A stretch of DNA of 61,565 bases, counting the filler, from Hausera hauseri (lineage: Eukaryota), in the NCBI GenBank assembly GCA_046269625.1. It is 11 parts of 11 records of this genome, joined end to end, with 100 filler letters (N's around TTAATTAATTAA, not from the genome) between each part and the next. Parts side by side here need not be neighbours in the genome. Positions count along the whole stretch, not along the records: positions 21,173 to 26,107 come from JBJURY010386702.1; positions 26,208 to 32,238 come from JBJURY010150422.1; 9 more parts are not named here. One strand, written 5' to 3'. The notes beneath the pieces are model-generated. The model did no database searches, had not been told where the DNA came from, and saw only the letters and a list, made by a program, of their open reading frames with translations. Shown here piece by piece: positions 8,565 to 56,837 of this stretch. The stretch's first letter is position 1. The number at the start of each line of letters is the position of its first letter. Position numbers and translations under genes: made by a program.

Positions 8565-8568
8565 TATT

Positions 8569-8584
8569 TGGCGATCCTAGCAGG
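8569..8584 (+). promoter_or_regulatory. Primer-binding site, tRNA-Arg(ACG)-like
   Basis: TGGCGATCCTAGCAGG, versus the complement of the invertebrate tRNA-Arg(ACG) 3' end TGGCGATCCTGCCAGG (recalled). Confidence 0.7.
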
Positions 8585-8940
8585 GCAGTTTGTGCCTCGC
8601 TAGACATTACTTTTGAGAGTCAATTAACAACATACAAGCCAATAGCGCCATTTACACCAAATAATTGTTATACGAGTTTAGAGTGTAAAATTGGGAACAT
8701 AAGTGGTTAGAAGGGAAATAAGTAAAGATTAATTTGAGAGCAAACATTGATAGGTTTAACTCGTGTCAAAACCTATTAGTAAACGGTATAGAGAAACGTA
8801 ATCCAAGGGAAACTCGAAATAAACTTTATATCAAAGATAAGGTAATTGATAAGCGCTGTTTAGCCGACACTGAACTAGCCTCTGTTAAAGAATTCAAAGC
8901 TCCTCCTAGAATTAAAGTAGACAAACCGAATAAATTAAAG

Positions 8941-9985: not shown

Positions 9986-11160
9986 GAGCGTATCATTTTC
10001 AGAGACTAGTAAAGCTAGCACGATAAAAGATAATTTGGAAGGGATCTATGGAAAACGAGGTGATGTAAGCATGATTATCGAGATGCAAGACTTAAGAAGG
10101 TATGTAAGAAATATGGGCAAATCTAATAATCCATAAGTAATCAAGGCTAGGAAGGAATATGAAGAAAAGCTGCACCAAATGGAAGTTTACCATGGGTTAA
10201 GAGAGCCAAAAACAGTACGAAAAAGTTAAGCACCTAGGAATACTAACATGGCCAGGAAGAAAAACCTAAATCAAGCAACAAAAGAGGAGAAAGAAGAAAA
10301 GCCTACTACGTCGTCAAGTGTTGACGTGGACGCAGATACCGAAATCGTGTCACAAAATAAGGATAAAACAACAGATGAGGTCGAGAGTGAATTCATTGGG
10401 CCATTAATACTTAAGATAACCAAGAATAGAGGTAGAAGCCCTTCTCTTAGAAGAAGGTCAGGAACTCGTTCACGATCCCCTATTAAAAGGATTTAGAAAA
10501 GAAGGAAGACTTCACCATCACTTTAAGAGATGAAGCGGAGTTACATACTCATGTTTTAATCCAAAACGTTCCGGAAATAAAAGATATTTCGAATATCGAT
10601 GAAATTAATGAAATATGTCCGTTACCACTTAGTGAAGAGGAATCAGAAGAGGAAAAATCTACTAAATTTAGGAAGATTAGAAAATCTTGGAAAAATGCAA
10701 GCGAACTAACCAAAATGAGAGACGCACTGAATGATCCCGAAAGGCTACAGGACAGCTTACAAAAACTCCAGCAGATGAGCAAACAGTTGGATATCTCCGG
10801 AAAAAACAACAATTCACAGAAAAGCTATATAAAAAGCTTAAACCCGGTTCTCAGAGAAAGGAAGAAAACACACCTTACGAACTGCAGGAAACGCCGCAAG
10901 ACTTGATAGAAAGTTGGCAAAATAAATTAGAACTGTGGACAAGGAGTGGGATTGATTTTACGAAAATATGGTGGAACAGAAACGAGCCATTTCTCGAGCA
11001 AGTTAATCAAGCACGCGGACTATTAAACACACTAAAGGATAACCCAAAATTGAAACGCGTAAGACGTAATTTAGAAGGATTGATATATGAGATCGAAGAA
11101 GCAATAATTTCTTATCTTCATAATAAGCCAGTATACGAACTGACTAATGCCGACTTAGAG
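9986..11160 (+). pseudogene. Post-Gag extension region X (N-terminal part), unknown function
   Basis: Continues in the knuckle frame (ORFs 9651 and 10248 share a frame). Homologous to 24830-26030 (e.g. PLILKITKNRG.SPSL, NPKLKR..RNL). Confidence 0.75.
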
Positions 11161-11412
11161 NNNNNNNNNNNNNNNNNNNNNNNNNNNNNNNNNNNNNNNN
11201 NNNNTTAATTAATTAANNNNNNNNNNNNNNNNNNNNNNNNNNNNNNNNNNNNNNNNNNNNGGAGAGATTCTAGAAATTTGCCTCGAGAAGTAAATTGATC
11301 TAAACTATTTGAAAAAGAAGAACATTAGAATAGACCATCCTCTAGCAATGGCAATAACAGACTCGAAGATGTAGTACGAAACTTAACCCGTAATAACCGA
11401 TGAAACAAATCG

Positions 11413-13035
11413 AATTGGCTAATTAACTTCCTAACCTTGATGATGTTAGTAAAGTGAATTGGAGCTGTTACGGTATACCACCGCGACAATTCAAACTTGG
11501 CCAAAAATATTCACTGATGGATTTATAAACATGGGAAGTCCCAAGGCCACACAAATTAGAAACAAAAGAAAATGACTACGTATTATATCAACAGCATGAT
11601 CTAACTTCTTTAGACGGAATAAAATGTATGTTTCGTAGATCTCGTAGTATTTTCCATTGTGAATAAATGCATGGACATAAAATAATAAAACCAACAACTC
11701 CACCAATCCCAATGAACCTAGAAAGACAACCCTGTAAACAGGCTAGAGAAACTGGTAGATTAAAATGGGATGGTATGGGACTAGAAATAAAACAAGGAAA
11801 ATAATTATATCATTTAAAGCAGCAGTCGGAAAATTAGATATGCATACCGAAATAAGCAACGGAGCCGAATACGACACTGGAAAAGGAATAGGAGGCGTAG
11901 TAGTTGTTGAATTTTATAAAATCGAAATGCGGATGTTTCATAGCGTTACTAAACTCTGTACTGAAAATCAAAAGTGTCATATACAGGACGGCATTTGCGC
12001 TTATAGAAGTTCAGTCGTAAATTTGGGAACCTCCAACTAAAACTGAATGTAACTTTATCAAATTTAACGAACCAAAGTTTAACGAAACGTCAGAAAAATG
12101 TTATGTAAACAGTATGAATCTGGTTCGAAAACGCGAGAAGACGTAGCAGTACAACCTACGCCAACCATATTAGTTTCCTATACTCACGGGTTAAAATATA
12201 TGAGAAAGGATGTACTCACACGTTGCGACGCAATGATGTATGCCATTAATTACAAAACATTTTTCGTAGCCAAAACTGAAATAAATATCAAGACGTTCAA
12301 ACTCGAAGCACACGTACGAATTGAAGATTGCTTGAAAAATAGAGATGTCTATTTCTTTTACAAAGGACAAGCCGGAATAACCGAACTATGTCATAAATTG
12401 TAATCACTGATTGCAAATTAGACTTTGAAATTACGAGAACTAAACTGGCTTTAATATAAGCTAATCCCTAGTTAGCATCACCAATAATTCCAATGAAGGA
12501 AGGTGTCGTTTTTCGAGTTACTGGTGAAATTTTATTAACTTATGAATGCGAAAAAAGAGATTTACCCATAAATGTAGAAGAAAAAAGATGAATTCAAGAA
12601 TTTCCAGTACTATACCGGAATATTCCGAGATTGGCGACGACAATTACTAGAGTTTTACCAGCAAACTCAACTAAACCAAGAATTTTGAAAGAATGTAAGA
12701 CGTGTCTAGGAGAACCAATGTTCAGACGTAACGAAACTGACTGGATAAGTTTACCAAATGAAAGCGTAACTACCCCGCACAGCAAATTAACGGGAACTAA
12801 CTTTGTAAAAGGAATAACGGACGACAAATTTCAAGACACCGCGATTAAAGTATTTACAAACCGAAGGAAGTTGAAGCACAGAACGAATGAAATACGATCA
12901 ACGTTTTCGAGAGACCGAGAAATGTAGGCTTTCAGAAACGCAGAATCGCAGCCAATAACTAGAAATCAAGAAACTGAAACCGTCAATTATGTAAATAATG
13001 AACTATATCCAAATGGAGAATTCAGACAGTTAGTT
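11413..13035 (+). pseudogene. env: Env: chuvirus/herpes-gB-like glycoprotein ectodomain preceded by an internal signal peptide; decayed, TM absent
   Basis: NWLINFLTLMMLVK*IGA|VTVY, KYSLMDL, IFHC, DGICAYRSSVV, RCDAMMYA, GEILLTYEC, EFPV, C...W pattern. Confidence 0.75.
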
Positions 13036-13139
13036 GATCATCCAGTTACAACTCCGAAATTAGAATAAATGGATACAATGTGTCAGTAATCCAGCATCCT
13101 AAAGTGGCACCAAATAGCTATGGTACAATAATTAAAGGA

Positions 13140-13440
13140 TGACCCTTCACTAAAATTCAAATAAAATGTTGGGAAGTCTATGAACTAATAGACACGGAAT
13201 CCCAAATATCACTAACAAAACACGACTCAATACTACAGGTTTTATGAAAACAATTATATCCACCACCAGCAACAGATCCAGGAACTGTTGGAGCTCTGTA
13301 TAGTCATCGAGATGTAAATACAGATGGAAGCCTGAAATATACATGATGGGAAAATCATTTCATCACGAATCCTCAATAATAAAACAATTAACTGATAATG
13401 TTGTGTTAGGAGACGATTTAGTGAAACAATTGTCAAATGT
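13140..13440 (+). pseudogene. pro: Retropepsin (aspartic protease), degenerate
   Basis: PFTKIQIKCWEVYELIDTESQISL (DTG degraded to DTE); downstream *CCVRRRFS-like remnant at the C-terminal LG.D position. Confidence 0.6.
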
Positions 13441-13769
13441 GGATTCCGCTGGAAAAAAGCAATCCTCCTAGAATACAGATGTTGATTTATGCACAATTCC
13501 GTCAAGATGATGATCAGCCAGTGTACTTTGAACCAAAAGAAACGCTAAATCCAAGCACCGTACACAGGGTATCGTCAGGCCGTGTGCCGATTAGATTAGT
13601 AAAAATGCGCCAATTCCAATTAAACTTTACGGTAATACTACAGTGGGTCATACGTATAAAGTGTCATCGATAACTATCGAGGAAAAACCTTATAAACGCT
13701 CTCAATTTCAATCTCATGTTGAGAATAAATTTTCACCTGAGTTTTACTGTCGCTTTTATGACCTGTTAT

Positions 13770-14740
13770 AAATCGATTATTGATGAAAATAAAGATATTG
13801 GTAGAACTAAAACTCCAAGGTTAACAATTCTGCTTAAGAGAAAGCCAGGTTCAAATGACTCAATAAATCTAGAAGATCAGAAGATGCCAAAATAGTATCC
13901 TATGCCTCATTTATTAATACTTGAAATAAGAAAAATTGAAAGAATGCTTAAAGCCGATATCATTAGACCGAGCTATAGATCTTGGTATTCACTTATACTT
14001 ATGATTAAAAAGAAAGGTTCCACAAAACATCAATTTTGTATCGATTATAGAGCGCTGAGCAATCTTATGATGAAAGATTCTTTTTCATTACCATCTGTAA
14101 AGGAAGCTTTAGATAGACTCTCAGGAGCAAAATGGTTTACCACTTTAGATTTGCAATCCGGATAGTGGCAAATAAAAATAGAAGATAAAGACCGTTACCA
14201 GATAGCATTTAAAACTCACGATGGTATATGCGAGTTTAATATCATGTCATTTGGTATTACAACCGGACCAGCTATTTTTCCCCGAATGAATAAAATATTG
14301 ATGGGATTAGAACATGCATTTGCATATTTAGATGGTGTAATGATAGTGTCATGAACGGAAGATGAGCATGTAAAGGATATCGAAAATACACTTACGAGAT
14401 TAGAACAGGCAGGATTAAATCTAGATCATACGAAATATAAATGAGCTCAGAATGCGGTATCCTATCTCGGACATATAGTTGGAGAAGGAGGATCGAAACT
14501 TGATAAGTCATTGTTAAACAAAATATCAGACTGTATGGAACCACAGAACCAAAAAGAATTAAGACATTAGTAAGGCTTGTATGGATATTATGCGACTTAT
14601 GTGCCAGAATAATGAAAATTAAATGCACCATTGTATCGTTTACTTAAAAAAGGAATCAAGTGGAAATGGACAGACGTCGAACAAAAGGCCTTCAACGAGA
14701 TGAAGACAATTTTAACCAGCGACCCAGTAATTCATTACGT
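13770..14740 (+). pseudogene. pol: Ty3/Gypsy reverse transcriptase, decayed, truncated before RNase H
   Basis: IIRPS.RSWYS, FCIDYRALS, WFTTLDLQSG*WQI, MSFGITTGPA, YLDG (YLDD), YLGH, AFNEMKTILTSDPV. Confidence 0.9.
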
Positions 14741-17700
14741 TTGACGCATATCGAAAAATCACTTTCTTGTAACACTTTCTTTTGCATTTCTCGGCTTCTC
14801 TTGAATAATATCGTGTTTTATTTTCGTCCACGCATTCATCCCGACATTCTCCATTAACCTATACCAATTTCCTGAATGTTGCTCAACATTTCTGGTTTGT
14901 CTTCAAGTTGATTTCTTTCTTCCACCATGTATTTTGCATTCGTTCTGACTTCACCGTTCGACTCACACAAATACCGACATTCGGAAACCATCATGGACTG
15001 GCTTGACCAACTTCCACTTCTGCTCCACAGACCCATGCTGGATCTTTGCCACTTTTGATTGATTACCCCGCTTGTGGCATTCACCCCTACCCACTCTATC
15101 CCATATCATTCGAACGCCCATAACCCAAACAACAAATTATCTCATCAATTACTGCTCAAATTTGGCTTCCGGAAGAAGTCGATTTGATTGCATTTCCTGA
15201 TTTCCCCTAGGGTTATACAGCCTCGCAGTGTGCACCATTGAATTCGCCGTACTCGAATTGTCCAAAAACCACTCATTGTCCAACAGCACCTGTTCCATTT
15301 CCCGTGTTCCTTTCTCCTCCAGGCCGACATCCAGAATATCTACCTCCTTTTACCTTTATGTAGAATTTAACTTTTTGTGTTAATGACTTAGCCTACTTGT
15401 GTTTTGGTTGTCAACGCTTTATTTAGTGGGAAAGGAAATTAGAATTACTTAAACAAAAAGAAAATAGACTAAGCAAAAATTATTTAACTTTTACTGAAAG
15501 GATGATTTCTTCGCTAGTAACTGTTCCGAACGAGGTTAGTGAATATATTTTTCTTATGCTTTTCCGAAAAATTGATTATTCCTTTGGTATATCGAACGGA
15601 TGTTAAGAGTTGAATCCAATTTCTCTACATAACCTTTAGCCACCGGGCGGTTAGACAATACAATTTCACCGTCATTTTTTAATTCTTCTATTATTAGTCG
15701 TTTATTCCTCATGGAATCACTAGATTCTTTGGAATTTTCGTTATATTTCAAAGGATTTTGTTCAGCCTTCTTGACAGTATTGCGAATTTCGCTCTCTTGA
15801 TAATCTTTTATCTCTTTTGACATTCGCTGTTTAATTTTCTCGAAATCCTTAACACGACTATCAACTCCTTGTNNNNNNNNNNNNNNNNNNNNNNNNNNNN
15901 NNNNNNNNNNNNNNNNTTAATTAATTAANNNNNNNNNNNNNNNNNNNNNNNNNNNNNNNNNNNNNNNNNNNNAACAATTATCTCCTTCACTCATTAAATG
16001 ATTCTTCTTTTTATCCTTTTTTGAATTTCCTGACTTTATATTGGCTGTTTATTGATTCAACTTTGAATTGAATTAAACATTAATATTCGTTTAAATTCCT
16101 CCTCACAATTACAATAAAAGAAACAAGGCCTTTTAATTTTATAGTATTTTAATTTATTTTAATTATAATGTAATACATTTAAAAAATGTTTATTTATTTC
16201 GTTTTAATTAGCAAGGTTTTACAGTAGCGCATTCCATCATAATAAAATTGATATATGTACATGATTGACCACAAATTATATTCGAGTGATATTTTTTATT
16301 TCGTCAGAGCACAAAGGAAACGACATAAATTGAATATTAAACGAAGATTTATTTAAAATGCAAATTTTAAATAAATCTTCGCTTCATGTGTTTATAAATG
16401 TCATAAAATGTCAAGTTGAGGAATACTACCTCATTGATAATTGGTTGTTTTGTGGCAATGAAAATTGAAATTAAATCTAAAAATTCAAATAACTGTAACT
16501 TATAAAAATGGTTATTCGTAAAACAACTATAAATGGTACTTCCAACAATTTAACTGCATGAATAAGTGTATTTCTGTTTTTTTATCAACATTTTACGAAC
16601 AGTTAGCACAAAGAAAAAAATTTACATACTAATATTTATAAATATGTTTACATGAAACGAAACATATTTTAACGAAAATAAATCAAAACTTTGAAATTAA
16701 TTTTGCATAAAATCTGAAAACTTGTTAAAAATCAAATAAACGTACTTGAGTTTTAAATCATCACGATAATTGCAAATTATGATTTCAACCACTATTACAA
16801 CTTTATATTAACAGAGTACACAACAAATGTCAATGTTGACTTTATTCGGTTATCGATTGTCCCATTATTGCTATAATAATAATTTGTAACTGATCGCCTA
16901 AAGTTGGTCAGTGTTTATCAATCGAAATGTGTGTTAAATAGACCAAACCTAATACGTACATCCTGATTATTGAAATTTACAACTTTGAAATGTACTTTGA
17001 AGTGTTCCACCGTTTGTTATAATTTGACAAATCATTCCATCTTCAATTATTGTATCAGTTACGCGTGTAATATTTATAACTGTTTTTACTGGATGTGTTG
17101 TCTGTCAGAACATTGTTTTTAAATCAAGGTTCGAATTAAGATTATTTTTGTTCAATATGCAATTCACACACCGAGAAAGTCTAAAAGATATTTTATGTAC
17201 ATTTTTATTTTACTGAGGCAAACAAAAGCACTGATCACGTGACTATCACGTAACTGATCACATGATGCGTGAGTGGACCCCTTTTCCCTTTGGTCCAGAA
17301 CCATTTTTTTACCCTACTTATTCGGACTTATTTGTTTTGCTGAAATGCCGATTCACTTAGCCAACCTATTACACTCAATGAATTCATTTTAAAACTTGAG
17401 TCATTCAACCAGCCCACCGTATTAAACTTATTTTAAAGTTTGAGTCACTGGTGGTGCTAATGCGTTTAAATTTAATGCGTTTTTAATGAAAAGCATTAAT
17501 CTTTGTAACAGTTATCAAATTGCAAAATAAATTAGATTTTTTTGTAAAAGTAGTCGAATTACTAAAGCAAAGTTCATTTACTCTATGTGAAAATATATTT
17601 ACTGAATTTTATTCTAAAACAATTTACACTGTTTACAATTGGGTATTTACCCATGTGAAATCAACATTCACCATTTTTACTTTTTGGATTATCATTTCAT

Positions 17701-18621
17701 GTAAGTTAATTTTGTTTTTCTTTCGTTTTGAAGTAACGCCAAATTTTTTGCAACATTTTTTGTACCGTTGAATGATAATTTTAGGAATATTAATTTTTTA
17801 TTTGATTTTCCTAGTTGTATATTTGGTGAAAAAACGGTAAACGGCAATTACATTGAACAGAGAATGTTTGTTTTATGTTTCTATTGTGATTTTTAACATT
17901 AAACAAAAATCAATTCAATTTTATTTGTCGTAACGACAGAATTAAAGCACAATTTTTCAAATTTAATTGTCAGATAATATATTTTATATATTGCGCTAAT
18001 TTTATTCGCACTGCGCAATCGCCGAATATCGTTATTCCGACGGATGTGTAACAGTTGACAGTGTAATCTGACTCATTTTTACGTGCAGATTTTCATCAGT
18101 GCGCGATGCACGAATGATCGGTGAGTGACGGCTGGTGAATTGCTTTGTTAGCGTGACTTGTTTCATCGATAGATTTTAACAATTGAAATTTGCCGTTGTG
18201 TGAATGTTTTGTTATCGTTCTGAATTACGACCAGTACATACACACCCACACATTATAATGGAACAATATTCAACGGGATAGCACCAATTTCCTGCTGTGC
18301 CATTTTACCTTTTGTTTACCTTTTTTTTGGACTAAGAAAAGTCGTAAAGGGAATTTTTTTCACTGTAGCAAGTTGACTATGAATGATTTTATTATTTATC
18401 TATTCACTGCTAATAGGGGAGGTAGCAGAATGCGACACTCCGAGCGGCACTTTGGTGGGATAGTAAAATAAGGCGATGAATTGTATGTGGAGACACGGGT
18501 GGTTCACAAGACAGACTTCTGGTCATTAAAGATAACTTCTTACTTAATGGAACTTGAATGACGTCTCTCATGATGTTGGACAACCAGTGGCGTAGCAAGC
18601 TTTAGTGATGCTTGAGATGGT

Positions 18622-18910
18622 GCCCCTTCCTCCACCCCCTTCCTCCCCCTTCCTTTACTCCCTTCCTCCGCCCCTTCCTCCACCCCCTTCCTCCATCCCT
18701 TCCTCCACCTCCTTCCTCCCCCTTCCTTTACTCCCTTTCTCCACCCCCTTCCTCCACCTCCTTCCTCCCCCTTCCTTTACTCCCTTCCTCCACCCCCTTC
18801 CTCTGCCCCTTCCTCCACCCCCTTCCTCCATCCCTTCCTCAGCCCCTTCCTCCACCTTCTTCCTCCGCCCCTTTCTGAACCCCCTTCCTCCACCCCCTTC
18901 CTCCGCCCCC
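18622..18910 (+). repeat. Pyrimidine-rich degenerate minisatellite (CCTTCCTCCACC-like units)
   Basis: Seen directly. It generates the Pro-rich and Gly/Glu-rich ORFs in the track. Confidence 0.95.
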
Positions 18911-19439
18911 ATTTACGTTTATCTGTGTTTAAATCTATATATAGCATGTCGAAAGAGGGGATGGGTTGGAGGTTAAACCTTCTATGGGATCTGACTCCAA
19001 ACATTTTTGTTTATAGGATCTGTTATGTTTCGGTGGACCACATCGAGTACAAAATATGCTATCGGTCAACCAAAAATCTAATTTCTCTGAAATCTAAGTT
19101 GTGCTCCAACTAAACAAAATCTGGGATATTTATGAATTCTGTCTATTTTAATTTGAGTTATTACATCGAGAAATTTCCGGCAAATAACCCCCGTAAACCG
19201 CCTCAGAATGGATCGATCTCAATAAGTTTTTGTAGCAAATTTTGTCTAGTTTCCAAATATAATGGTTTTTCTCAAGATTTTGATTAGAAAAAATTTCCCG
19301 TTTACGGATGTCGCGATATTTTCTCTCTTTAATTATTTGTATTTATTACACAAAAAACTAACACAACAAAAAGAAACTTGAAAACGAAGAGTTTACTGAA
19401 GCATTTTATCACTAACTGACCATAAAATGTCAATACACA

Positions 19440-21172: not shown

Positions 21173-22245
21173 ATTGGCGTAGATTAGAGCTAATTTAGTT
21201 CTCATAATTTCCAAGTCTAATTTACAATCGTTTGTTATCATCTTGTGATGCAATTTTGCTATTCCGGCTTGTCCTTTATAGTAAAAATAATCGTCTCTGT
21301 TCTTCACATAGTCCTCAATTCGGATATCTTGAGTCTCGAGTTGAACTTTCGTACATTTATCTCAATCTCGGCTACAAAAAACGCTTCGTAGTTGGTAGCA
21401 TACATTATTACGTCGCATCGGGTGAGCATGGTTTTCTTTACGAATTGTAATCCATGCGTATCCGAAATCAATATAGTAGGTGTGGACTGTTCGGCCACAT
21501 CTTCTCGTGTTTAAGAGTTGGTCTCTGTATTAGTTATGTACCGCTTTCCGGTCGTCTCGTAAAATTTTAATTCTTTGATCCTAATGAAGTTACAATCAGT
21601 CTTAGCTGGTGGTTCCCAGATCACTACTGAGCTTCGAAACGGACAAATGCCATCCTGGATGTTACATTTGTGGTTTTCGGTATAGAACTTGGTAACGCTA
21701 TGGAACATTACTTTCTGTATACGCATTTCGGTTTCATAAAAATCCACTACCACAACGCTCGGCTCTAATCCTTTTCCCGTATCATATTCTATACCTGGGC
21801 AATGTCCAGTGTGCATATCCAGTCGTCCTGCTGCCACCTTATATACTCTAATTATTTTTCCTTGTTGCATCTCCAATTCCATGCCATCCCACTTTATCCT
21901 TCTAGTTTCTCTGGCTTGTTTACAATGTTGACGCTCTAAATTCATTGGAATTAAAGGAATGGTTAGCTTGATTATTGACAAGTGTCCATGTATTAATCCA
22001 CAGTGAAAAATGCTTCGAGATCGTCTTCACATACACTCTACTCCATCTAATGCAATTAGTTCGCGTTGTTGATATAACACGTAATTTTTTCCTTTGTTTC
22101 CAGTTTGTGCGGCCTCGCATTTTTGCACATTTCCAAGTCCATTAGGGAGTATTTCTGGCCAAGCCTAAATCTATCACAATCATATACAGTGACGGCACCT
22201 ATCTGCCTTATTAGCATCATGATGGTCAAGAGGTTGATTAGCCAA
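21173..22245 (-). pseudogene. env: Env N-terminal half (gB/chuvirus-G-like) with internal signal peptide
   Basis: WLINLLTIMMLIRQIGA|VTVYDCDRFRLGQKYSLMDLEMC ... RSIFHCGLIHGH ... CKQA ... CNIQDGIC..RSSVVIW ... DCKLD. Confidence 0.8.
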
Positions 22246-25200
22246 TTCGATTCGTTTCCTCTGCGGTTTCCGGTTACGTTTCGTAGCAGGTCACCGAGCC
22301 TGTTGTTGTCGAAAAAGAATTCTCCTTTATGTTCTTCTTCCTTTTCGAAAAACTTCGACCAATTTACTTCTCGAGGTATTTTTCTGCCAGCCTTCCTTGC
22401 TAAGCTAGTAGCCTTATTAAATTCATTTTCGCGGTTCGGGTTGGTCTTTATGGCTAGATATAACATCACTTTCCTCAATTCCTCTACGGTATTTTCCATC
22501 ATAATCTTCTCAATCGTTGCTTCATCGCTTAAGGTACTTTTGGATAATTTATACCGGAGTCCTTTCATGGCTTTGGCAGCATTTAATATGGTCTTTTCTT
22601 TTTCATCTAACACATCGCCGTTCAAACTGGAGTGGTTCACTTTTCGTATCAGATCTTTCATTAGTTCATTCAGTTCCTCACTGTCTGCACTAAAGGTTGG
22701 TATGGACATCTGTCTCAGCTCTCTGATCAAATCTTCATTATAGTCGATTTCTTCTCTTACCTTCCGTGGCCTACCAATAGGTCGCTTCTGTTTCGTTACG
22801 ACAGGTATACCAACATTAATCGGTACTAAATTTTTATCGTATTGTTCATGATCTTCGTCTCTCTGTAAATACTCAATGTACACTACCGCGTTTCGGACTC
22901 CTATTATTCGTCCTACTGGCTGTTCGGCCTTTGCCTTCCTTATAGCCTCTTCTTTTGTCTCATCGTTAGCGATAGTTACCACTAACTGGTTTACCTCGTC
23001 CGGAATGATTCCAACCTCTATTAATAGTTCCGACTCGTCGAGCATTCTCCCTCTAAAATATAATCTATAGTTCACCTCTTGGTTGTAACCATTATTCTTT
23101 ATACATAATAATACATCCTTCACGGATGAATGTGTGGTGAATTCTTGCTCTTTTTCATCCATCCAATCTGCCGTTATTTTAACTTTAATTCCCTCGTCGA
23201 GCTGGTCCTTGGAAATTTGGCATATTCTTTGATTAGAAGTTTTGGCGCGGCATTGTAAACTGTCCCTTCGCCGGCTAATTTGGTTAAAGTGGGAACCCAC
23301 CATCTTAATTGTTTTTCAGTGAGGTTCACATTGATTAACCTAAATAGTTCCTTTTCAGTTTGTACCGGATCTAATAGCATTTCTACACAGAATTTCTGTT
23401 CTGGCGAGCATATCTCCGTTTCGTTTAAGTGTACTGGAGTTTTCGGGGTTTCGGCTATTATGGCATCCAGATATGCCTCCCAATCTGGTTCATTTTCATT
23501 ATCCGGTAGTGTATAACTTCTTGGTAGTGTATCAGTCGACTCTCTTGCACCCGTCATCTCTACGGTTGCTCTAAGTTCACGTAGCTTCTGTTGCATTATA
23601 ACCATTTGGGTGGGTCGGAAGCAGCGACCATTTCCTGAACTTCGATGTAGTACCGTTAGCAGCTGGCATAATTCCTCGGCTGATATAAGTCCCTTTTCCT
23701 GGTAATTAGTTAACTCGGAGGCTACGTCTCATTGCCACCTTTGTACAAATTGCGACTTGTCAGCCTTCTCTGCTTCGGTAAGAGCATATTTAACTTTACA
23801 TGGTTCGAGTTCTTTGGCGAGCTCGTCCAATCTCGTCGCTCTCTGTTTGGTTTTGATATTAGTATCTTCCACTTGCTGTATCTGGGGCAGCAGCTGTCTT
23901 AATTTCTCATCGCTGATTTCGGCCATAACTTTGGAGTCGGGGTCTATCTCGTCCCGTAGCCTTTTTATGAACTTGTCTTCTTCAAATTCCAAATATTGCT
24001 CATTTCTCATTTTAGTTAGTTCGGTATGATACCTTTGATCGACTCCAGGCATTCCTTCCTGTGGTTGATGTAAAAATGCCACTATCTCTTCGAGGGTCGA
24101 CCTGTGATTAGGACAAACGTCTAATGCCTTAAGGTCACGTACGGATATTTCTTTTATGGGCTTGGTGGCCAATTTTTGAATCCCTTCTAGACGGACTTTT
24201 CATAATTTCGAATAAAGGTCGTGCATCCGATTCCGTTTTTGCGCAAAGTTTGTTTCTTCAATCGTTTTGTATATATCCCCAAGTATCATCATTTCTTGTT
24301 CCTTGTCCATAAAATCCACTGAGCGTAAGGATTCGAATTTCGTTCGGATATCAATTTCTGCTTTCATCGTATCTAAATTTTGGGCGCCTTCTTCCAACCG
24401 CCTCTTCACTCTGAATTCGCTTTGCGGAAATTCATTCATCCGGCTACTTGTTAGTTTGCCCAACCTTGCTATTACTTTCGACCACTCATTCATTTGATTC
24501 TTGATGTCTGACTTTGCTAATATTGCTTTGTTTAACATCTTATTGGCATCTTCCAGTTCTTCATCTGGGCCTTTGAGGAAATCAATGATCTTACAGGCAT
24601 AGTCGAACTCATCTTTATATTCATCAAATTCGAGGATACAAGCTATAATTATTCTCTGTGTTTCATCGTTATTTGGGTACATAATTCTATTCTTTAGACT
24701 ATTTATCTGCGACCGTTTTTCGGCTTCGAGTTTGATACGACTTTCCAGGTTAGTGTATTGCCTTGTCGCATTAGAGGCGATTTTTATCATTTCCATTAAA
24801 GGTGGAATATCTATGGGGTCTATACCCAACACTTCCAAATCCGTTTCAGTCCTTTTTTGAACCGGTTTCTTTTTTATTTGCTCAACTATGATAAATCTAA
24901 TTTCGTCCATTACACGCTTTAAATTTCGTACCGCTCGCTTTAATTTCGGGTTTGCTTCTAATATTGCTAGCAGCGACTGAGCCTGATTCACTTTAGTTTC
25001 TATGTCTTGTGTGGTCTTATACCACATCTCTAAGTTTTTCGTCTCAACCTTCGTCCAGTGTTCTAATTCACTCTTCCATTGTGCTAACATTTCTTTTGCA
25101 ACTTCATCGGGTTGATCCAAATCTATGGCTTCATTTAACTTCCCTTCACTATACAGTTTCACCTTTTTATACAGTCTCTCGACAAACTGCTGTTCTTTGC

Positions 25201-26045
25201 CAGAAATATCCACTTGTTCACTTATCGCTTTGAGTTTCTCTAAATTCTGTTGTAATACCTCCGGGTCGTGACAATTTTCCCTCATTCTTTTTAACTCCTC
25301 GGCATTTTTCCACGAGCGCCTGATTTCCCACTTTTAGGGATCAAGTTTCTTTTCTTGTTCGGTTTCCTCTTCACTAGTAGGTATCGGACATACATCGTTT
25401 ATTTCATCCGCAAATTTTATCAATCCTTCTATTTCTCCGTGCGTGACTAAACTAACTTCTGGACAATTTGAGGCGTACTCGATGTGGCTTTCTGGTGCGA
25501 TTTTGATCTCTTTCTTTGTGCTTTACTTGCGCATGGGAGATCTTAATCTATCTTTGCCTTTTCGCTTCAACGAGGGACTAGGGCCTCTGTTTTTAGTAAT
25601 TTTAAGTATAAGCGGCTCTAGGAATTCTTCCTTCTCTTCAGCGTCTATTTCCTTAGTTATCTTTTTCATAGTATGCTCGGGCTCTACCTCTATAGTTACT
25701 TTATCCGGAGTCTCAGAATTTTCCATTTCGTCTGACTCTTTGCTTGTCCTAGAGAGGTTCTTCTGCCGTGCCATATCAGTAAGCCTTGGCGGGGCGATAG
25801 AACGTTTATATACCGTTTTTTGTTCATGATAAACTTCCATTAGTCTTAATTTGTGCTCATATTCATTTCTAGCTACTAAGAATTTAGGGTCACCAGTATC
25901 AGGCTGATTTTTCAAAAAACGCCTTAAATCTTGTATCTCAATAATCATGCCTGTGTTTCGACAAATGCCATATATTGCTTCTAGATTTTCGTTTCTAATT
26001 ACGTTAGTTTTACTAGGTTCCACGAACGAAACGCTTCGCGGATTC
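22246..26045 (-). pseudogene. Region X (~1,250 aa): RS/basic patch, helical/coiled segments with SAM-like repeats, ubiquitin-like domain, AT-hook
   Basis: Long co-framed ORFs. Ubl-like YRLYFRGRMLDESELLIEVGI; AT-hook KRPIGRPRK. Confidence 0.7.
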
Positions 26046-26414
26046 GGACAAGACCTCGCTATATGTCCTTCTTGTCCACATGTAAAACAGACTAAATTGC
26101 CATTTCTNNNNNNNNNNNNNNNNNNNNNNNNNNNNNNNNNNNNNNNNNNNNTTAATTAATTAANNNNNNNNNNNNNNNNNNNNNNNNNNNNNNNNNNNNN
26201 NNNNNNNGTCAGATTATTAATACGTGTCTGAAATTCACTTTTTCTCTCTAATGAATTTAAAATTGTAATATTTTTGATCAAATCTTTATGTATAAGATTA
26301 GGAAATCTCCAGACGTTTGAATTTTTGAGGATATGACAATTCGTGGGGAATCCACTTATCCATCTTTTTCACCTTTCAAATTTTATTAAGGTAACGACAT
26401 CGTTACTATGGATA

Positions 26415-27672
26415 ATAACTGAGCAAGAAGTAGAGGCACAAAATTCAAAACGCAATATAATGGAAACAGATAATTATTAGTATAATATAACTTAAACCGC
26501 CAGGGATTCGTCCTTAGCGCACACTCGTAGATTTTTTCGAAAGGCCTTGAAAAGGTTTTTTCCACATATTTGGCGATTTTTATCGACAGCGGTTTCCAAA
26601 TTCGCGTTATCTGGGCAACCGTTGATCCATTTTGCTTCTGATGATGGTACTCGGTCTTACATAACGCCAAAAGCGTTCGATAAGTCGGCATTGAGGTAGA
26701 TTAGGGGGATTCTCGGCCTTGGGTACGAATTGGATTCCAGCATCCGCAAATTTATCGGTAACAATGCGTGCGTAGTGGGCTGTGGCAAGATCAGGCCAAA
26801 AGAGAATCGGTTGAGGACCCTTCTTCTTTTCCAGGAGCGGCAATAACCTTTTTCCAATGCACTCAATCTTGTAGATCTCCACGTTGATGGTCCTTTGAGT
26901 GACAAAAGGTTCCGACACATCTCCGTCCTCCGCATTCGCTTGCCATATCATAAGTTTTTATTCAAATTTGCCGGTCTGCACGACAGTTTTTTCAAGTGGA
27001 ATTTCCTCTCCGGGAACATCATTGTAATATGCTGGTTGTGCGACCTGGGTGGGATTTGTTGGAACGTAAGTTTTATCGTGCAACACAAAAAAATTTTCCT
27101 TCCGGATTTGACGCTCAACTTATAAAGTTTTGCGCACCACTGCATGCAACGGACAATTTGGTTCGAAACGTACTTCGGTTTGAGACTCTTCTTTCTCCGT
27201 TTGATCCCGACCGACTTCTTGATGACTCGCAATGTTGACTTCTTGAGATCACGTTTACAAGCACGCACCTTGTTTGACAGCGTTGTGTTCTTTACGCAGT
27301 CGCTGATGACTCTAGCCTGTTACCTTAATGTGTTAATAACAGACTGTCGTCCCGGAATTAGCTTGAACAAAGCAGTGCCATTTCGTAGAAATGGTGAAAT
27401 GACATTATGGATGGTCCTGGAAATCCCTGAGTCACAAAATGTCGAACAATCATTTTACGATCTTCTCCATACTTCAGGACAAAATAGACTATTGACTGGG
27501 CCTTGAATTGGTTTTGCTGCCGGATCATGGTTGCATAAGAACGTGATTGATTTGACAGTTAATGAGATGTAGCTAACAAACTTTCAAACAAAATGTAAAT
27601 TTGAACCGTATCTATTAGAGAGCGTGCACAATAGCTCTTTAAATTTTGTGCCTCTACTTCCTGCTCAGTTAT
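26415..27672 (-). mobile_element. Tc1/mariner superfamily DD37E (ITmD37E-like) transposon with decayed transposase
   Basis: ~35-bp TIRs ataactgagcaagaagtagaggcacaaaattcaaa / tttaaattttgtgcctctacttcctgctcagttat, TA on both flanks. FWPDLATAHY...NPPNLPQCRLIERFW has exactly 37 residues between D and E. Confidence 0.9.
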
Positions 27673-30042
27673 TACGTCTAACTTATCTGCAAGGCACTGT
27701 AACGTAGTTGATGAATTATGTTCGACTTCCATCAGCAGTTCGTGGTCATCAACTGCCGTCTTCCTCGTGGAGCGTCTTCCAAGTTAAAATTACGTTTCTT
27801 GAGATTCAAAAACCAACGCCTTACTGTTCTCTCATTACAGGCATTTCGTCCAAATGCTTCATTAATTTCTAGTAGTTGTCGTTGCATTTAAGCCTTTTTT
27901 GAATTGAAAAAGGAAAATGACGCGAAAATCTCTTTTCGAAAGCATATCTATTGGAACATAAAACAAGTTGAATTAAGCATCTCAGAAAAAGAAATTGAAA
28001 TAAATCAGTTATTACATACCTATTTTAAAGATAAAAACACGTCCTTTCACTACAGGTGTATAATCGAGACTGATGACTTATTAGTTACTACGCATTAAAA
28101 CGGACGTTTCATGTGTAAACACCTGATACGAAATAGAAACTAACCCAGAAAGATGCTATTCGAATGGATTATGATGTTCGCTAAATTTAGATTTTAACAC
28201 TCGTAAACTTTCATCTGAATTGATATTTCGAAAATTTTGTCAAAATAGTGATAAACTTGTCCAGTTTAGCTTATTCATCTTATTGATAACTGAATTATTC
28301 TCATCTTCGAAAAATTGTGGATGATTCATGACAACCGCAACTGGCAAATGCTTTCCGTTAAAAGCGCCCAGACATAAAATAATTTTTAAATAATTATCAC
28401 AGGGTAAAACTTCGTGAAAATTTCCTTTTATCATAGCAAATGAAAAATAAAATTTTCTAGGCGGAGCTTTATTCGGGCCACATTTGTCGGTTGCGGTTTT
28501 TACGATGAGCCAACTTATGAAAAACACAAATTTTATTCGAGCAATACACTCAAAAAACCAAAAATGGCAATGCTGTAGTATCAAATTTTTCTATAAAATA
28601 GCGATTGCCAGCCAATAGAAAAACAGCCACCAAGGCCAAAACATAGAAACATACACACAAAAAGTCTTTAAAAGGTAGGGGTCCATAGAAGTCTATCGGA
28701 GACCTGGTAGAATGTGTGGCATGACGTACGCACGTGACCACATGTTTGTTGGGTTTTTTGCTGAAGTAATGTAGGGAATGGCGAGGGTGGTATTTGGGTG
28801 AGCAAGGGAGCCATGTTGAAGTCGGGATTTGATGTTTTCGGCGTCGTCTTATATTGGGGCCAGAAGTTAACCTTGGATGAGTCGGAGTAGATCCTTGTGT
28901 AAGGTTTGGCCAGAAGCATGGGCCATAAAGTGGCAAGCCATTCGAAACAGAAGATTGGTCGGTTATCCAGTTTTATGTTATTTTAATGTTTAACAAAATC
29001 ATATTTGACATAAAACTGTTAATGAATAATGCTACATTTCTGTGGTACATTTTTAGAGTAAAACTTTATATGAAAACTGCGAAAGCATTTTGCGAAATCA
29101 TGATGAACAAAAGTTTTACCTAGCAATAAACATGTCTAATTATTTCTTTTGTGCCTTGAATTAAAATTTTACCTTTAAATTAAACTAATAATGAAATATG
29201 ATTGCACCTTCAGAGTAACGAAAAATTTTAATGCGATTGCCCAACTTAGATATTGATTTGAAAATTACGGTACTTCTATGTGAAATCGTTTAAATTAAGG
29301 TGTACCTTATTTAACGTACGTATGTTGCAATTTTGCCATCATTAACACAGTTTAACCAATTTAATGCAAAATTGTATTTTTTTACAAAATTGTTCATGTT
29401 TTTAATTTCAAACTCCTACAAAAATTTGTAAAGAACTGCAACAATGATTACTTTTTCAATATGCCCAGTTCTTCTACATTATATATCTATTATTTTGTGC
29501 ACTCCGAGTCACATGGTTATGTGTCAGTGGCCTAAAAAGTTCTATGTTCCAATATTGGAACATGACAGAAAATGGGTTAAAGTCCTAATGTTAATAAATC
29601 TGATTGGACTATTTTGATGTAAATTAAAAATTTAAATTTTAATGTTTGAAACCATTTATACACATTCCATTGGTGTTTTTGTAAAATGATAATTTGTTAA
29701 TATATTCAATAAATGTACAAGTTGAATCATAGTATACAATGTCGATATTAACTGTGATTTTTGAATTATGGGTAGGAGTTCGTTAATAATAAAACATATT
29801 TTAAACGTGTGTATGGTGCTTTGTCCAAAAAACAACAACAACGTCCTTTTTCATTTATTGAATTTAATAGTCAAATTTCAAACACACATGAACGAAGAAC
29901 GTGTGACTCATTTTTATTGTATTGTATTCGTTCATTAAACTTACGCAGAAAAATATTTCGTAGATGAGAAAATAGTTTTAATTTGCAAAAATCGTACTCA
30001 CTAATTTCGGTCGTGGTATGGTAATGGAACAATAAGATGTTC

Positions 30043-30180: not shown

Positions 30181-31019
30181 AGCGTTGGACATCGGACCGA
30201 TTCAAATCGGTAGAGCTCGACAAGGCGAGCAAAAGTTTGTAGCGCGGGTAAGTCCCCAAATGTAAGGGAGAGGAGCCAGAAGACGAAAAAGAAAAACAGG
30301 AAATGCATCACCAGAAACGCGTAACACATTCATGGCGTACTAATACAATGGGCATACGTCAAATCGATATCGGCGAGTCGAATGGACACACTTTCAACGT
30401 TTTTCGCACATGGGAACATGGGGAAAAATCGATGGGAAAAATTCAAACTCTAAAAATTTCCCATTGCTCAAGTCCAACGGCGACGAAAATTCAATGAGCA
30501 CGTAGCCCGTGACGAGAAGCACATTTCATATTATAAGCACCTCACTATTAGACGATTGCAAGTTGGTGAAAAATAACGCGAAAAGGCGTTGTTAAAATCT
30601 AAAGTTTTATTTTGTGTTTGTCGTGTCGTGTCGTGTCGTACAATAATCGAAATGGAAATTTTCAAAATCATCAGCGACATTATTATCGTCATCATTCTCA
30701 AACCATGAGCATGTAACCAGGTACTACCACTATCTCTTCTCACCGTGAACAAGAGGTGCGAGAAGGTGATTGACAATAACCGACCTGCCTGGCTGCATGC
30801 CTGTGTGAATGAAACTGTTTGCTGCAACAACTGCGCAAAATAAAAAGTTGTCGCGCCAAACAAAATATTTCTGCGTGCGCGTGCTTTTAGCAAAAGTGCT
30901 GGGAAAAATAACACGCACATGGATAACAAAATACTGTATTTTTCAAAATGAACACAAAGTAAATAAGTCAGTAAGTAGTAGAGTAGTAGTGTTCAAAACA
31001 TGATAATGATGATCAATGT

Positions 31020-31400
31020 TCATCCAAGTGTCTGTAATGTAAGCCACAATAAGTAGTAATGTCCACACAGTATAGTACTTGGATGTTGACAATGAAGTCT
31101 GTTATATTCAACGCAATATGACGATTGTCTTTCAATTTGAGAAACTAACGATGACGGATAGTAAAATACGAGCGGATCGGATATGTTTACGGCGAAGTTC
31201 GTAGGATGTATGTACACAGCAATCCAATGTTCGCCGGGTAACGATGACGTGTGTGTATTGACAATGAAGCCGCCAACACAGTCAATTTGTCGTATGTCGC
31301 GCGGTACACGGTCCAGCGGAAACAGACTGCGAAATTTCTCGCCCATGAGCAGTTTTCCGTAGCAATTGAGCTCGATGGAGCTAAATGTAAAACATGGGAT
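31020..31400 (-). pseudogene. Polinton adenain-like cysteine protease
   Basis: GGFIVNTHTSSLPGEHWIAVY...DPL...QHPSTILCGHY (H, D, Q and C catalytic pattern). Confidence 0.85.
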
Positions 31401-31478
31401 TAAAGCATAACAATATTAATAATCAATTACTTCATATTTTTGAGTAGTAATATGGCAAGAGTGATGCATTAAATTTAT

Positions 31479-32238
31479 TTATACAATGGCGGTTCCGCTT
31501 TTTGTTATTTTCAACTCGGCATTAAATACACCGTAAATATGCATCACGGTAAACTGTTGCAGCGCTTTGCCAAAGTGAACCTCTAATCGAAGGTTTTCCT
31601 CTTGACGTAATTAAGGCTTCTCAACACCATAGTCCGGGGACAGGACAAATGTGAAGAATGCGTAGGTGGACTTGAGCAAATCCATCGATATGCCATTGTT
31701 GATGTCTTTCTTGAGCAAACCTATGTTGCACACGACGGATTGTATATATGTGCAAACATAATCATTATATTCAAAGTTTTGTTTGTACGCCTCAACAAAA
31801 TCCGCATACCGACCCAAACAGATGTTATTCACATTGCTATGGGTAAACGTTTTCTAATCGGTCGTATAACTGCCCGTTTGTTGAACAGTAACGAGCACAA
31901 ATTTGGGCAATCGCATGTCGCCAAACAGGGCGTCCTTATAAAACGTAGATGAACCTTTGGGTATCGTGTAAAAGACGAGTTCTGTGCGTTGTATCTGGTA
32001 ACAGGCATTTTGTGTTTCCAAGCCCAATCGATGTCCCATGAGCACAGATGGTTCTATCTTTACAACACGTACGTATAATAGTGCCTCGGTAATTTTTAGT
32101 GTGGGTTTCAGATTTGCAACTGCGGTTTTCAAACAAAAGACATTGTCGCTTCGTTTGAGCTGAATCATGGCTTTAACACCGGGCAGTAGGTATTTCGGCT
32201 GATCGAAAAAGTCAAAGTACAGCGGTCCACACATTGTA
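31479..32238 (-). pseudogene. Polinton major capsid protein, C-terminal part
   Basis: GPLYFDFFDQPKYLLPGV, LYVRVVKI, RLPKFVLV, NLRLEVHF. Close homolog of 55535-56766. Confidence 0.85.
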
Positions 32239-33649: not shown

Positions 33650-36600
33650 TTATTTCAGCCGCCAATATCCGTACGCCCAACTCTTATTTCGCCCCATCCA
33701 CTTTCGCTTATCATCGTTATATGACAAAGCGACTTTCGCACTAGTTATTGTGTACAGGCGGTGCTCAATTGATCGGATGATAGTTTAAAACACAACAGCC
33801 ACTGATTGTTCTCCTTCTGCTGCTGGTGCTTCATATATACGACGATAATCACCGTTGCCGATTTCCATCTGCTTCAGTTGGATGCCTTTTTCTTGTATTT
33901 TCGGTCCACAATCCATCAGAAGACTGCAGCACTTTGAGCGTAGGAATATCCATTTCCGGTACTGAACCCGACCTTCACTTTCATCTTTGAAGCAGCCGAT
34001 TTTGTTGGTTATAGCGCTGCTGTACAACGCATGATCCGGTGGGTAGTTGGACGTGTCCAGTAATCCATTTGACTGCATTTGCTGACGTAGCTGTTCGCGA
34101 TTGACTTTTTTCAGCGCTGGAAAAAACTGTCAGTGTCACCTGCAATTATACTAATGTCACAGCCGTCAAACATTTTCCGGTAACGTGCCAAGTCGCGATA
34201 CAGTAGCTCATACATCCGAAACTTGCTCAGGTTCAATACCATTTGTCAGATGTAACTTGACTAGACCAGAACGACTTCTTCTATGTTTAACAGCACTACA
34301 ACCAATCCATCGGCAATGTGTATTGACGCCGAAACTGCGCATTATTCGTGTACGTAACCAACCGCTTTTAACTATTGCATAGGCGTACATTAAGCCGCTT
34401 TTTCAGATTCTCAACTATTTTGCCATACAGGGAATTGTTTTTCAGCTTATAATAGTTCTTTTCGAACTTTGTACAAGCTGTGGCTCGTTTCTCCAAATTT
34501 CGACCTATGTTCGCCTTGAATATCGGAGATTGAGCAAGTCGGATTGCACGATGTAGCTGTGCAACGCGAACACCGAGTTGCGTGTAGAGCTGTAGTGGAC
34601 GCCAATAGACTACGTAATTCAGCTTCGGTTCATTCGTCATGAGCAGTTTCTTCACTTTTGAGCCTGGTGGACATTAGTTAAATGGTGCGACCGGAAAATC
34701 GTCCAAAACGTCATGCAGCTCATCTGGTATCTCGAGATCATCCTCCATCAGGTATCCAATTAAGCTTGCCATGTCTGTTCGTGGTAGGTTGGCCATTATG
34801 TCGTCCAGACCTTGTCTGTCGATTACCCATTCAAGTGAACCGAACGGCAAGGGTTGCGAAAGCGCCCAGCCGTACAGGTTATTAATATCATTATACAGCA
34901 GTGATGTGGTATCGGTAGCACTGATCTGATGCTTTTTGACAAATGTCATGCCACCTCGAATACCAACATCAAACAGTCGGTACATTTCCGGGTCTTGCAG
35001 CAGCTCAATGTCTCGATTCAATGACATTAGAGCTGACGCCAAACTCATTACCGGTATGGAATAAAAATTGAGTGGCTCCAGCCTATCTTCAGTCAACGCT
35101 TTAGCTTGAAATGTCTAAAACACATCGGCTAATAAGTACACGTCCAGTTTCAGATACTGAAGCATGTACTCCAACATGTTTCTACAGCCGAGTTCTGTCC
35201 AACACCTCTGTGATTTCTGGTATTCATCCTCTGCGATACCTGTCCATCTCGGAAGTAATTCCCCTGCTGTTCGGTGTCTCTCATATAATGTTTCAAAGCC
35301 ATACGGGAATAATATACCTTTGCTACGAGCAGTATGTGTGGGAAATTACATCAATGTCATCGGCACATCCTGCAAGGCATTTACGAGCCTTCCTAGAGAC
35401 GCATTGAAAAATTGCTATGAGTCGAGGAAGAGTACTTGGAACGGGTTTATGCGTGCTTATAGGGACAGGTATTTTCTCATTGTTGTTGGGATTACTGGCA
35501 GTTCCCAGTGGGTAAATCCATTAATGGTCCATTTCAGTATATGGTGACAATCATAACCTGGAAAATTATGAAAGATCACCGGTAAAAATGGCCGCACACG
35601 CCTTGCCAAATTGCAAGAATTATATGCTGCTCCGAGATATTGAGCAGTCAAATGATCGTGATCCGGTACGAGCTATTCCAGTGCGCCAAACGGTAATTTT
35701 TGTGGCACAGGTAACATTCATCTGTGACTGCAAGCGTCATGCGTTCATCATCATTTGTCAACATCAATGGTTTATTGCTTTTTCTACTGTGCCACAGTTC
35801 GATTTCAGTTTTCACTATGGTTTGCAACTGCTGCTGGAAATCACGTACACAGTTCCAGCCGTGAAAGGCGTAATATGGAGGTTGGCCGACCGCTTTTATT
35901 GGGACAATCAACATAACAACGGCGATAGGAACGTGCTTTTGATCATACACGTTGTGCAGTGGTAGAATTGCATCAATATCGTCATATACCACATATGCTG
36001 GATTGGCCGTTTTCGACCAGTCACTGAATCGGAGTTCCTTTTTGAGTGGCATGACGTACATGGTTGTTCCCGCTAAATTCTGCTTGCACAGCATCACATG
36101 TTTCTCCAATGTTGTTTTGACCTGAATCCATGCAGACATACGGGACACCATTTGCATCGTATTTGCTTTTTGATGAACTGGTCATGCTCCATGTTGAACA
36201 GTCTATTCAGATTTGTCACTGCCACGTAATGAAAATTTTCACCCTGCTCCAACAAAAACAAATTTACCGAGTGTCCATTCGGGTTTCAATAGCGATAAAT
36301 TATGTTTACATGGGGTTTTGTAAAAATTTCTTCGTCTTCCGGTATTTCTATTATTGTGTTGTACCGGAAAACGTTGACTGACAACATCGGATTACGCCGT
36401 TCAAAAGCCGGAATGGTTTTCAGTTTCATCGGCATCCAGCATTCATCAAATTTCAATTTGGAAAAATACTGCCGATACTGATTTGGACGATTTGCATGAT
36501 ATCTGTTTACTTCGCTGTACTTCAATACAGCCAGAATGCTGTACAGAAAGCAGTATTAGTCGTCATTATTTTGTACATTCACTACCTCCAAAGACTGCTT

Positions 36601-37150
36601 TAAAGATGCAGGTGTTGGTATGAGTGACAATCAAGACAAATATACTACGTCACTCGACTTTGTTATGATATAGCCGAGTGTGACAATTCGTATAATTCGC
36701 CATCCACTACCCTTTTCGGTATAGTTGGCGATTTTCTCATTCAACTTTTCGCCTACATCGGCAATAAAATCTTCCGAATACGGTACGGCTCGATATGACA
36801 GGTACCATTGTTTCCTGTCACCTTCAACATTTTCATATTCTGCAAGTGCATAATATTGCACTTTCGAGTTGTTGTGTTTAAATTTCTCCACCTCTAATTC
36901 TAACCGGTTGCACACACTGGACCGAATATGTCTCAGCTCTAGTGTTGTTGTCCCTGACATGTTTACTTTCATGTCCACGTACAATTTGTTTAGATTGTAC
37001 TTGACAGTAATGGAAGGTTTCTGCTGTTGCATCTGATTCTGTTTGGTACTGTTTCGCATGTATTCGTCAAGACTTGTTGAGGCCTGACGTTCCTGCTTGT
37101 TGAGGGGATATTGGTTTTTCTTGTCGCCGTCACTATTTCCTTTGTGGACC
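33650..37150 (-). pseudogene. Polinton pPolB with N-terminal extension, decayed
   Basis: GSGW, CFLYSILA, FHNFPGYD, GIRGG, YNDINNLYGWALSQPLP, KLKNNSLYGK, GDTDS, IGCFKDE, LSYNDDKR..AYGYW. Confidence 0.92.
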
Positions 37151-55515: not shown

Positions 55516-55534
55516 TTGACAGACGGACAGACAA

Positions 55535-56766: not shown

Positions 56767-56837
56767 ATAAATAAAATCCTCTGTGTCGTTGTCGTCGTCT
56801 TTGTCTTACTATGAAGTAATTTATTTTGATTACTATT

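Follow-up and report, generated by a model that had tools for sequence, protein, structure and literature searches.

The window analysed here, a 61,565-nucleotide stretch from the Hausera hauseri assembly GCA_046269625.1, consists of 11 separate contigs of 4-8 kb each, joined by an artificial N44-TTAATTAATTAA-N44 spacer. One whole contig (21173-26107; 4,935 bp, minus strand) represents a decayed member of a multi-copy family of long terminal repeat (LTR) elements of the Ty3/gypsy type, with the order Gag, cargo, glycoprotein B (gB)-type Env and Pol. On this contig a Gag CCHC zinc knuckle is followed by about 1,260 codons, which we call region X, and then by a gB-type (PF24664) Env, with four stops and two frame changes along the way. 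Quite probably, region X is the cargo section of what was once one polyprotein resembling the planarian Burro elements. This reading draws on the observed order of the modules, on third-position divergence between copies, on three breaks private to this copy and on relatives that keep the arrangement in one open reading frame (ORF). The novelty lies in the cargo, some 950 helix-rich residues that have a single database homologue and cannot be aligned to the cargo of relatives, and in a pre-Env helical domain without Bcl-2 signal.

The minus-strand frame read from 26107 includes the knuckle (26048-26089; Pfam zf-CCHC, E 1.1e-7) and runs for 977 codons to 23174 with four stops (25523-25525, 25334-25336, 24200-24202 and 23729-23731). 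All four ORF starts that the initial annotation had placed in the knuckle frame (26023, 25285, 24172 and 23605) lie within it. A second frame, stop-free over its 419 codons (23315-22056), is entered near 23215-23200, where the two open frames overlap (23174-23315), and holds the Env start; the greater part of the Env piece (PF24664, E 2e-14) lies in a third frame, reached near 22090 next to an A-run. The two interruptions proposed to separate the knuckle frame from Env, near 23215 and at a poly-A near 22090, were thereby recovered, and the intervening region, put at about 1,250 residues, measures about 1,264 codons from the end of the knuckle to a hydrophobic segment (26038 to 22247). Between 26107 and 23216 there are 4 stops in 964 codons, compared with 91 and 81 in the other two minus-strand frames and with a mean of 66 and a minimum of 40 in 1,000 shuffles. 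A second copy in the window, copy 2, differs from the main copy most often at codon position 3, then 1, then 2, in all four X blocks compared (for example, 60/45/92 differences at positions 1/2/3 in a block of 159 codons), and the third-position excess is seen in Env too. Because substitutions relative to copy 2 are mainly at third positions, X diverged as a protein in the named frame, and this bias, together with the paucity of stops, supports one coding frame. That region X belongs to the element and evolved as a protein is supported.

Two relatives keep the arrangement in a single stop-free ORF. P0044, found through the Env of another contig in the window (40711-45031), spans 1,963 residues with a Gag tail, a 1,036-residue cargo and Env. 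P0047, the closest of 16 long reverse transcriptase (RT) matches to the copy 2 RT (42%), spans 4,057 residues and carries Gag, two knuckles, a Pfam-ubiquitin domain, a Bcl2-like domain, Env, Ank, protease, RT, RNase H and integrase. It has five members at 99.6% identity, its best PDB match is Ty3 Gag-Pol (E 6e-129), and it matches the Env piece of the main copy at E 6e-36 (tblastn). The skeleton common to P0044 and P0047 consists of an RVxF-like motif, a variable cargo, a ubiquitin-like domain, a basic patch, a helical domain, a hydrophobic segment and an Env starting with YDC; the cargo is 830 residues long in P0047 and 1,264 in the main element. In an RT tree of 18 rows, contig 40711-45031 joined P0047 (87/86), and copy 2 had no supported placement. 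P0047 also has parts of its own. After its integrase, residues 3590-4057 comprise an ectodomain with a stalk rich in Thr and Ser, flanked by two hydrophobic segments, and a tail whose final residues, ESSV, we take to fit the PDZ-binding consensus. Between its Env and its Pfam-matched protease lie a protease-like DTAS stretch and ankyrin repeats (1950-2050 and 2120-2340), and a possible second ubiquitin-like domain noticed by eye at 553-632 did not score.

A phmmer search with the 977-residue frame against 1.84 billion representatives returned 42 matches; in 41 the best stretch was the knuckle, and in P0003 alone (E 8e-14) it lay in X. P0003 is the only database homologue of the second part of X, at 34-37% identity; identity to copy 2 is 37-54%. 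For 23207-22059 there was no homologue of 672-2,000 residues, the lengths covered by the search, shorter ones lying outside it. Viral and JGI metagenome contigs yielded no related loci, in a search that needs exact short peptide matches and whose blank is accordingly weak.

We then asked which breaks are peculiar to the main copy. In three public runs (X1, X2 and X3) the family is represented by short contigs, 12,797, 1,747 and 684 in number, with identities of 80-100%; X1 is possibly the source sample, and the three runs are perhaps not independent. Their contigs cover 30 of 30 bins of the stretch, with 0-3% continuing into unlike DNA, and 828 of the 12,797 contigs in X1 are at least 99% identical. 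The stop at 25334 is lacking in copy 2 and in 1,491.7 of 1,529.5 (X1), 150 of 150 (X2) and 60 of 60 (X3) units of depth. Likewise, the stop at 23729 is lacking in P0003 and in depths of 28,077 of 28,544, 201 of 206 and 127 of 127. Across the site near 22090, copy 2, P0044 and P0047 are all in frame, copy 2 having a break of its own 90 nt before the matching site. Overall, three of the six breaks between the knuckle and the Env start are private (the two stops just named and the Env frame change), one, near 23200, is mixed, and the stops at 25523 and 24200 fall outside the tally. The possibility raised at the outset, that stops and frameshifts are conserved across copies and delimit separate genes, thus fails at three sites and is left with a mixed result near 23200.

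Along the minus strand, several modules can be assigned with graded strength. At 26024-26038, RSVSF ends the Gag tail, as a like motif does in copy 2, P0044 (300) and P0047 (401); we take it to fit the RVxF consensus for docking of PP1, which makes it a putative docking site. The first part of X (25523-26023), 51% identical to copy 2 and closed by the first stop, is a charged linker with a basic, R/S-rich stretch at its end. The second part (23216-25522) holds the other three stops in about 770 codons rich in E, K, Q and R and poor in Pro and Gly. Over most of their length the first 950 or so residues of X are charged, helix-rich and Pro/Gly-poor, and they contain no membrane segment. From this composition and from sub-threshold Pfam coiled-coil matches, the second part is likely helical or coiled-coil. 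Pfam gave no match to MATH, BIR, ankyrin, midasin or dUTPase in X or in the Pol pieces of these decayed, incomplete copies.

The 80 residues at 22950-23189 are likely a ubiquitin-like domain. ESM Atlas scored them at 0.92 for ubiquitin and 0.91 for Rad60-SLD, with 160-161 shared features, slightly below the guide value of 170, and with PF11976 (Ubi/SUMO-like) among the matches; the whole 383-residue frame gave nothing above 0.76. The domain aligns over its full length to the Pfam-ubiquitin domain of P0047, with 0 of 500 shuffles scoring as high, and it has weak matches to UBX (E 0.088) and ubiquilin-2 (E 1.2). Each of these signals is moderate or weak, and all are concordant. Since no GG follows the domain in the main copy, we put aside the idea that it acts there as a cleavage signal of the ubiquitin kind. 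Downstream, at 22761-22787, lies a basic motif with a GRP core, presumably AT-hook-like; P0047 has one in the same position, and P0044 has just a lysine run.

The next module, at 22302-22718, sits in the slot that is Bcl-2-like in P0044, P0047 and Burro. Single-sequence AlphaFold predicted six helices at a poor pLDDT (predicted local distance difference test) of 48, another model reaching 39. The structural route proposed in the initial annotation, AlphaFold followed by Foldseek, was thus run, and these poor models gave no Foldseek match at E 0.001. A wide fold search with the helical-domain model found no Z of at least 5; its best Z was 4.5, to unrelated chains, with Bak at ranks 37 and 43 among ties. 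The domain has no Bcl-2 sequence match. Its counterparts in the relatives match Pfam Bcl-2 at E 0.0055 (P0047) and E 0.11 (P0044), both below the curated cut-off; the P0044 domain also matches many PDB Bcl-2 chains at E 0.15-1.5, and both keep a BH2-like W..GGW motif. A Death-domain reading of the P0044 domain (Pfam E 0.05, PDB E 0.06) was set aside because the aligned domain of P0047 matches just Bcl-2. The sole hydrophobic segment of X follows at 22185-22247 (Kyte-Doolittle peak 1.78), kept in copy 2 and found at the same place in P0044 and P0047; it likely serves Env as an internal signal peptide or as a membrane anchor. From YDC onward, 21173-22184 encodes the N-terminal half of a gB-type (Monjiviricetes-like) Env ectodomain (PF24664), truncated by the contig end and carrying frame changes near 22090 and 21360 and two stops besides those in X.

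The order of the remaining modules comes from other contigs. Copy 2 comprises two separate contigs (6260-11160 and 11261-15872), which may not be one insertion and which match just 26107-24833 and 22396-21173. They cover the first 1.27 kb and the last 0.2 kb of X, plus Env; for about 2.4 kb of mid-X the window holds no second copy. The claim that a diverged copy at 9986-11160 and 11261-12480 ties the region to the element was upheld in substance, with the correction that within X the two contigs match its two ends only. Because an artificial spacer lies inside 9986-12480, the reading of that interval as a single uninterrupted copy was dropped. On the plus strand of the first contig, a TAACA LTR-end-like site precedes a primer-binding site at 8569-8584 that matches the last 10 bases listed for tRNA-Arg(ACG), tRNA ends being taken from supplementary file 1 of PMC13524379. 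A broken Gag capsid region with a CCHC knuckle (8941-9974; P0047 Gag by tblastn at E 9e-8, and zf-CCHC, with no Pfam Gag match) and the 5' part of X (9986-11160, matching 26036-24833 up to the contig end) follow. The second contig, also on the plus strand, carries by sequence match the broken 3' end of X, the hydrophobic segment and Env (11261-12843), then a decayed protease-like motif near 13190-13250 (by eye; tblastn gave just E 4.8) and, 3' of Env, an RT (13896-14738; RVT_1, E 7e-21). Compared with P0047, Env apparently lacks its C-terminal portion, membrane anchor included, at 12843-13190. Env thus sits before Pol on this contig, Pol is of the Ty3/gypsy type (RVT_1, RT_RNaseH_2), and the order read from the pieces is Gag, X, Env, Pol. 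The whole polyprotein, summed from pieces, is estimated at about 3,400 residues; its 3' end and the untranslated regions lie outside the window, which holds no 3' LTR. Contig 40711-45031 belongs to a different family: at 41543-45030 on its minus strand, the C-terminal half of Env (PF24664, E 2e-42; 62% to P0044 Env) is in frame, with one stop, with an aspartyl protease (RVP, E 5e-5), followed by RT (RVT_1) and RNase H (RT_RNaseH).

A layout of this kind has been described. For planarian Burro/GYPSM1 elements, the account of Arkhipova and Yushenova (2019, PMC6431247), which cites Grohme 2018 and Jurka 2007, gives a single Gag-CCHC-Smc-Ubl-BCL2-Env-Pol polyprotein with an ORF of 4,873-5,140 residues, two or three knuckles and an internal region of up to 25 kb. 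The same account proposes, as a hypothesis, that the accessory domains interfere with host ubiquitin and cell-death systems. The suggestion that a multi-domain accessory module sets this element apart from standard ones was therefore anticipated in print. As in Burro/GYPSM1, Gag with its CCHC motif is followed in our element by a probable coiled-coil (Smc-like) region, a likely Ubi/SUMO-like domain (PF11976) and a helical domain, and the mononegavirus-like Env, probably once in frame with its neighbours, lies between Gag and Pol; P0044 and P0047 have the same layout. Of the Burro features looked for, a Gag with CCHC, an Env between Gag and Pol and a Ubi2/SUMO-like domain before the BCL2 slot were found. 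A single frame from Gag to Pol is seen in P0047; in copy 2 the frame between Env and protease is unreadable. In contrast to Burro/GYPSM1, the main element is smaller (about 3,400 residues by our estimate) and each window copy has one knuckle. Its pre-Env domain is without detectable Bcl-2 signal, and X is without the MATH, BIR, ankyrin and midasin matches. By analogy, the element may work like a small Burro, and the likeness is one of layout and domains.

GAG-ENV-POL errantiviruses with an HSV/gB-type Env have also been catalogued in nematodes, bryozoans and flatworms (Chary and Hayashi, PMC13524379; see also Sacco 2022). With these our element shares a Ty3/gypsy Pol, an Env that is of the gB type, follows a signal or transmembrane segment and precedes Pol, a tRNA primer site and many copies, and its Env resembles, by eye and unscored, the Schmidtea rows of that supplement. 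Taking ORF span as coordinate span minus 6 kb flanks, which is our reading of the catalogue (15 of its 36 nematode rows being covered), 14 of the 19 bryozoan and flatworm entries have about 8.3-8.9 kb of ORFs, four have 10.9-12.0 kb, 2-3 kb above the rest, and one lies at a contig edge. Since 'accessory', 'ubiquitin', 'Bcl' and 'Burro' are absent from the main text of PMC13524379, the cargo of the four long entries is not described there. Beyond the Burro review (PMC6431247) and this eLife catalogue, we found no account comparing the cargo slot across families, Sacco 2022, Grohme 2018 and the eLife figures lying outside the comparison. The Gag-Env-Pol order and the fused polyprotein are already published in these sources, and an implied novelty of layout is not supported.

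Several observations weigh against the polyprotein reading. The break near 23200 is mixed, the depth differing from the main copy being 496.5 of 2,982 (17%) in X1, 28.8 of 47.8 in X2 and 40.1 of 40.2 in X3; near 22086 it is just 89 of 3,302 in X1 and 22.3 of 47.8 in X2. The break tally covers four of the six sites, those among the 40 of 1,070 rows listed, and among the run contigs listed the longest is 363 nt, too short for the reads to tie X to Gag or Env. The second part of X cannot be aligned to the cargo of P0044 or P0047, and the three families' cargo aligns at the ubiquitin-like domain alone. On a profile of the relatives' domain, the pre-Env helical domain was beaten or equalled by 154 of 500 shuffles. 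Copy 2 and P0047 were grouped in 6% of bootstrap trees, a grouping that was not rejected (p-AU 0.32). Finally, the database, viral and JGI metagenome searches found no intact member of the main copy's own family. The Gag-X-Env(-Pol) polyprotein of the initial annotation therefore holds as to a coding X, the order of Gag, Env and Pol and the existence of one-ORF relatives, and is qualified by the mixed break near 23200, by the stops at 25523 and 24200 outside the tally and by the want of an intact family member.

These points bear unequally on the alternatives. Copy 2 shifts frame, in a poor alignment, no more than about 40 nt from the position corresponding to 25523, and for this reason we kept as a rival a regulated break, in which Gag plus about 175 residues would end near 25523, or a programmed frameshift would act near 23200, with X-Env-Pol made at a lower level. 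Most X1 depth is the same as the main copy near 23200, and a plain ORF would impose a one-to-one Gag:Env:Pol ratio, which is unusual for retroelements. However, the two breaks near 25523 differ in kind, and with eight breaks in 2.2 kb of copy 2 such proximity can easily arise by chance; near 23200 most of the depth in X2 and X3 departs from the main copy, and P0044, P0047 and Burro show no break in the region. We consider a regulated break unlikely. An in-frame spacer without accessory function, derived from a recently captured host coiled-coil gene fragment, would account for the lack of a family match in the second part of X, for its helix-rich, low-information sequence and for the different cargo in the three families. 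It is improbable, given that no host homologue was found among the 1.84 billion representatives and that the identities to P0003 and copy 2, with third-position-biased change, indicate long retention. The least probable explanation, which we hardly credit, is that the contig is a chimera from a misassembled repeat family: the family is highly repeated, the assembly consists of 4-8 kb contigs and mid-X has a single copy in the window, but the knuckle-X and X-Env junctions recur in a 70%-identical copy, one frame extends over 977 codons, and the domain order at the end of X is that of the two stop-free relatives.

If the polyprotein reading is right, the anatomy suggests how the product might work. 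A precursor would be made from one Gag-X-Env-Pol frame. Gag and X, which precede the hydrophobic segment at 22247, would remain cytosolic or nuclear; the segment would thread Env into the endoplasmic reticulum as an internal signal, and the chain would return after the Env anchor for Pol. Cuts by signal peptidase and the element protease would then separate Gag, the X modules, Env and Pol from one another. X may act as a host-modulating accessory protein: its RVxF-like motif would possibly dock PP1, the long helical stretch would serve as a scaffold, the ubiquitin-like domain, an integral part of the chain, would mediate interactions, the basic patch would be AT-hook-like or direct nuclear targeting, and the last helical domain, in the slot that is Bcl-2-like in relatives, would be anchored in the membrane. 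We are much less sure of these single-domain functions, which are read from sequence features, than of the one-polyprotein reading. A bolder proposal is doubtful: that a swappable cargo slot lies at a fixed place between the RVxF-like motif and a unit of ubiquitin-like domain, basic patch, helical domain and signal; that the Env signal doubles as the tail anchor of the helical domain, a single signal-peptidase cut thus releasing both Env and a membrane-anchored death regulator of the Bcl-2 fold; that the Gag tail recruits PP1; and that the slot here holds a new 950-residue protein, the Bcl-2 fold having drifted past sequence recognition.

The neighbouring contigs contain further mobile and repeated DNA. 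Decayed Polinton/adintovirus-like pieces lie at 6260-7800, 30200-32238, 34368-37442 and 55122-57900 (DNA polymerase B PF03175, E 2e-13; adenain-like protease, E 0.087), and an ORF at 55727-56638 is presumably capsid-like. A transposon remnant at 26413-27674, which we take to be Tc1/mariner-like, has 37-nt inverted repeats (26413-26449 and 27638-27674) and no Pfam match. On the minus strand, 45396-45850 is an intronless, broken Cse1 (exportin-2)-like fragment, a pseudogene (Pfam E 2e-4). Direct repeats of 690 bp at 3450-4138 and 5472-6159, 97.7% identical and 2 kb apart, are possibly the LTRs of a short element; 1-114 recurs at 4213-4326, and 18610-18915 is a C-rich minisatellite with a period of 12-13 nt.

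Taken together, these results indicate that the Burro layout is not a lone oddity: its skeleton recurs with other cargo in three further families, in two of which the ORF is intact. The compact, stop-free P0047 and the conserved unit of ubiquitin-like domain, helical domain and signal ease domain-by-domain tests of the host-tampering idea, and the orphan cargo of 950 residues is a candidate for a new accessory protein.

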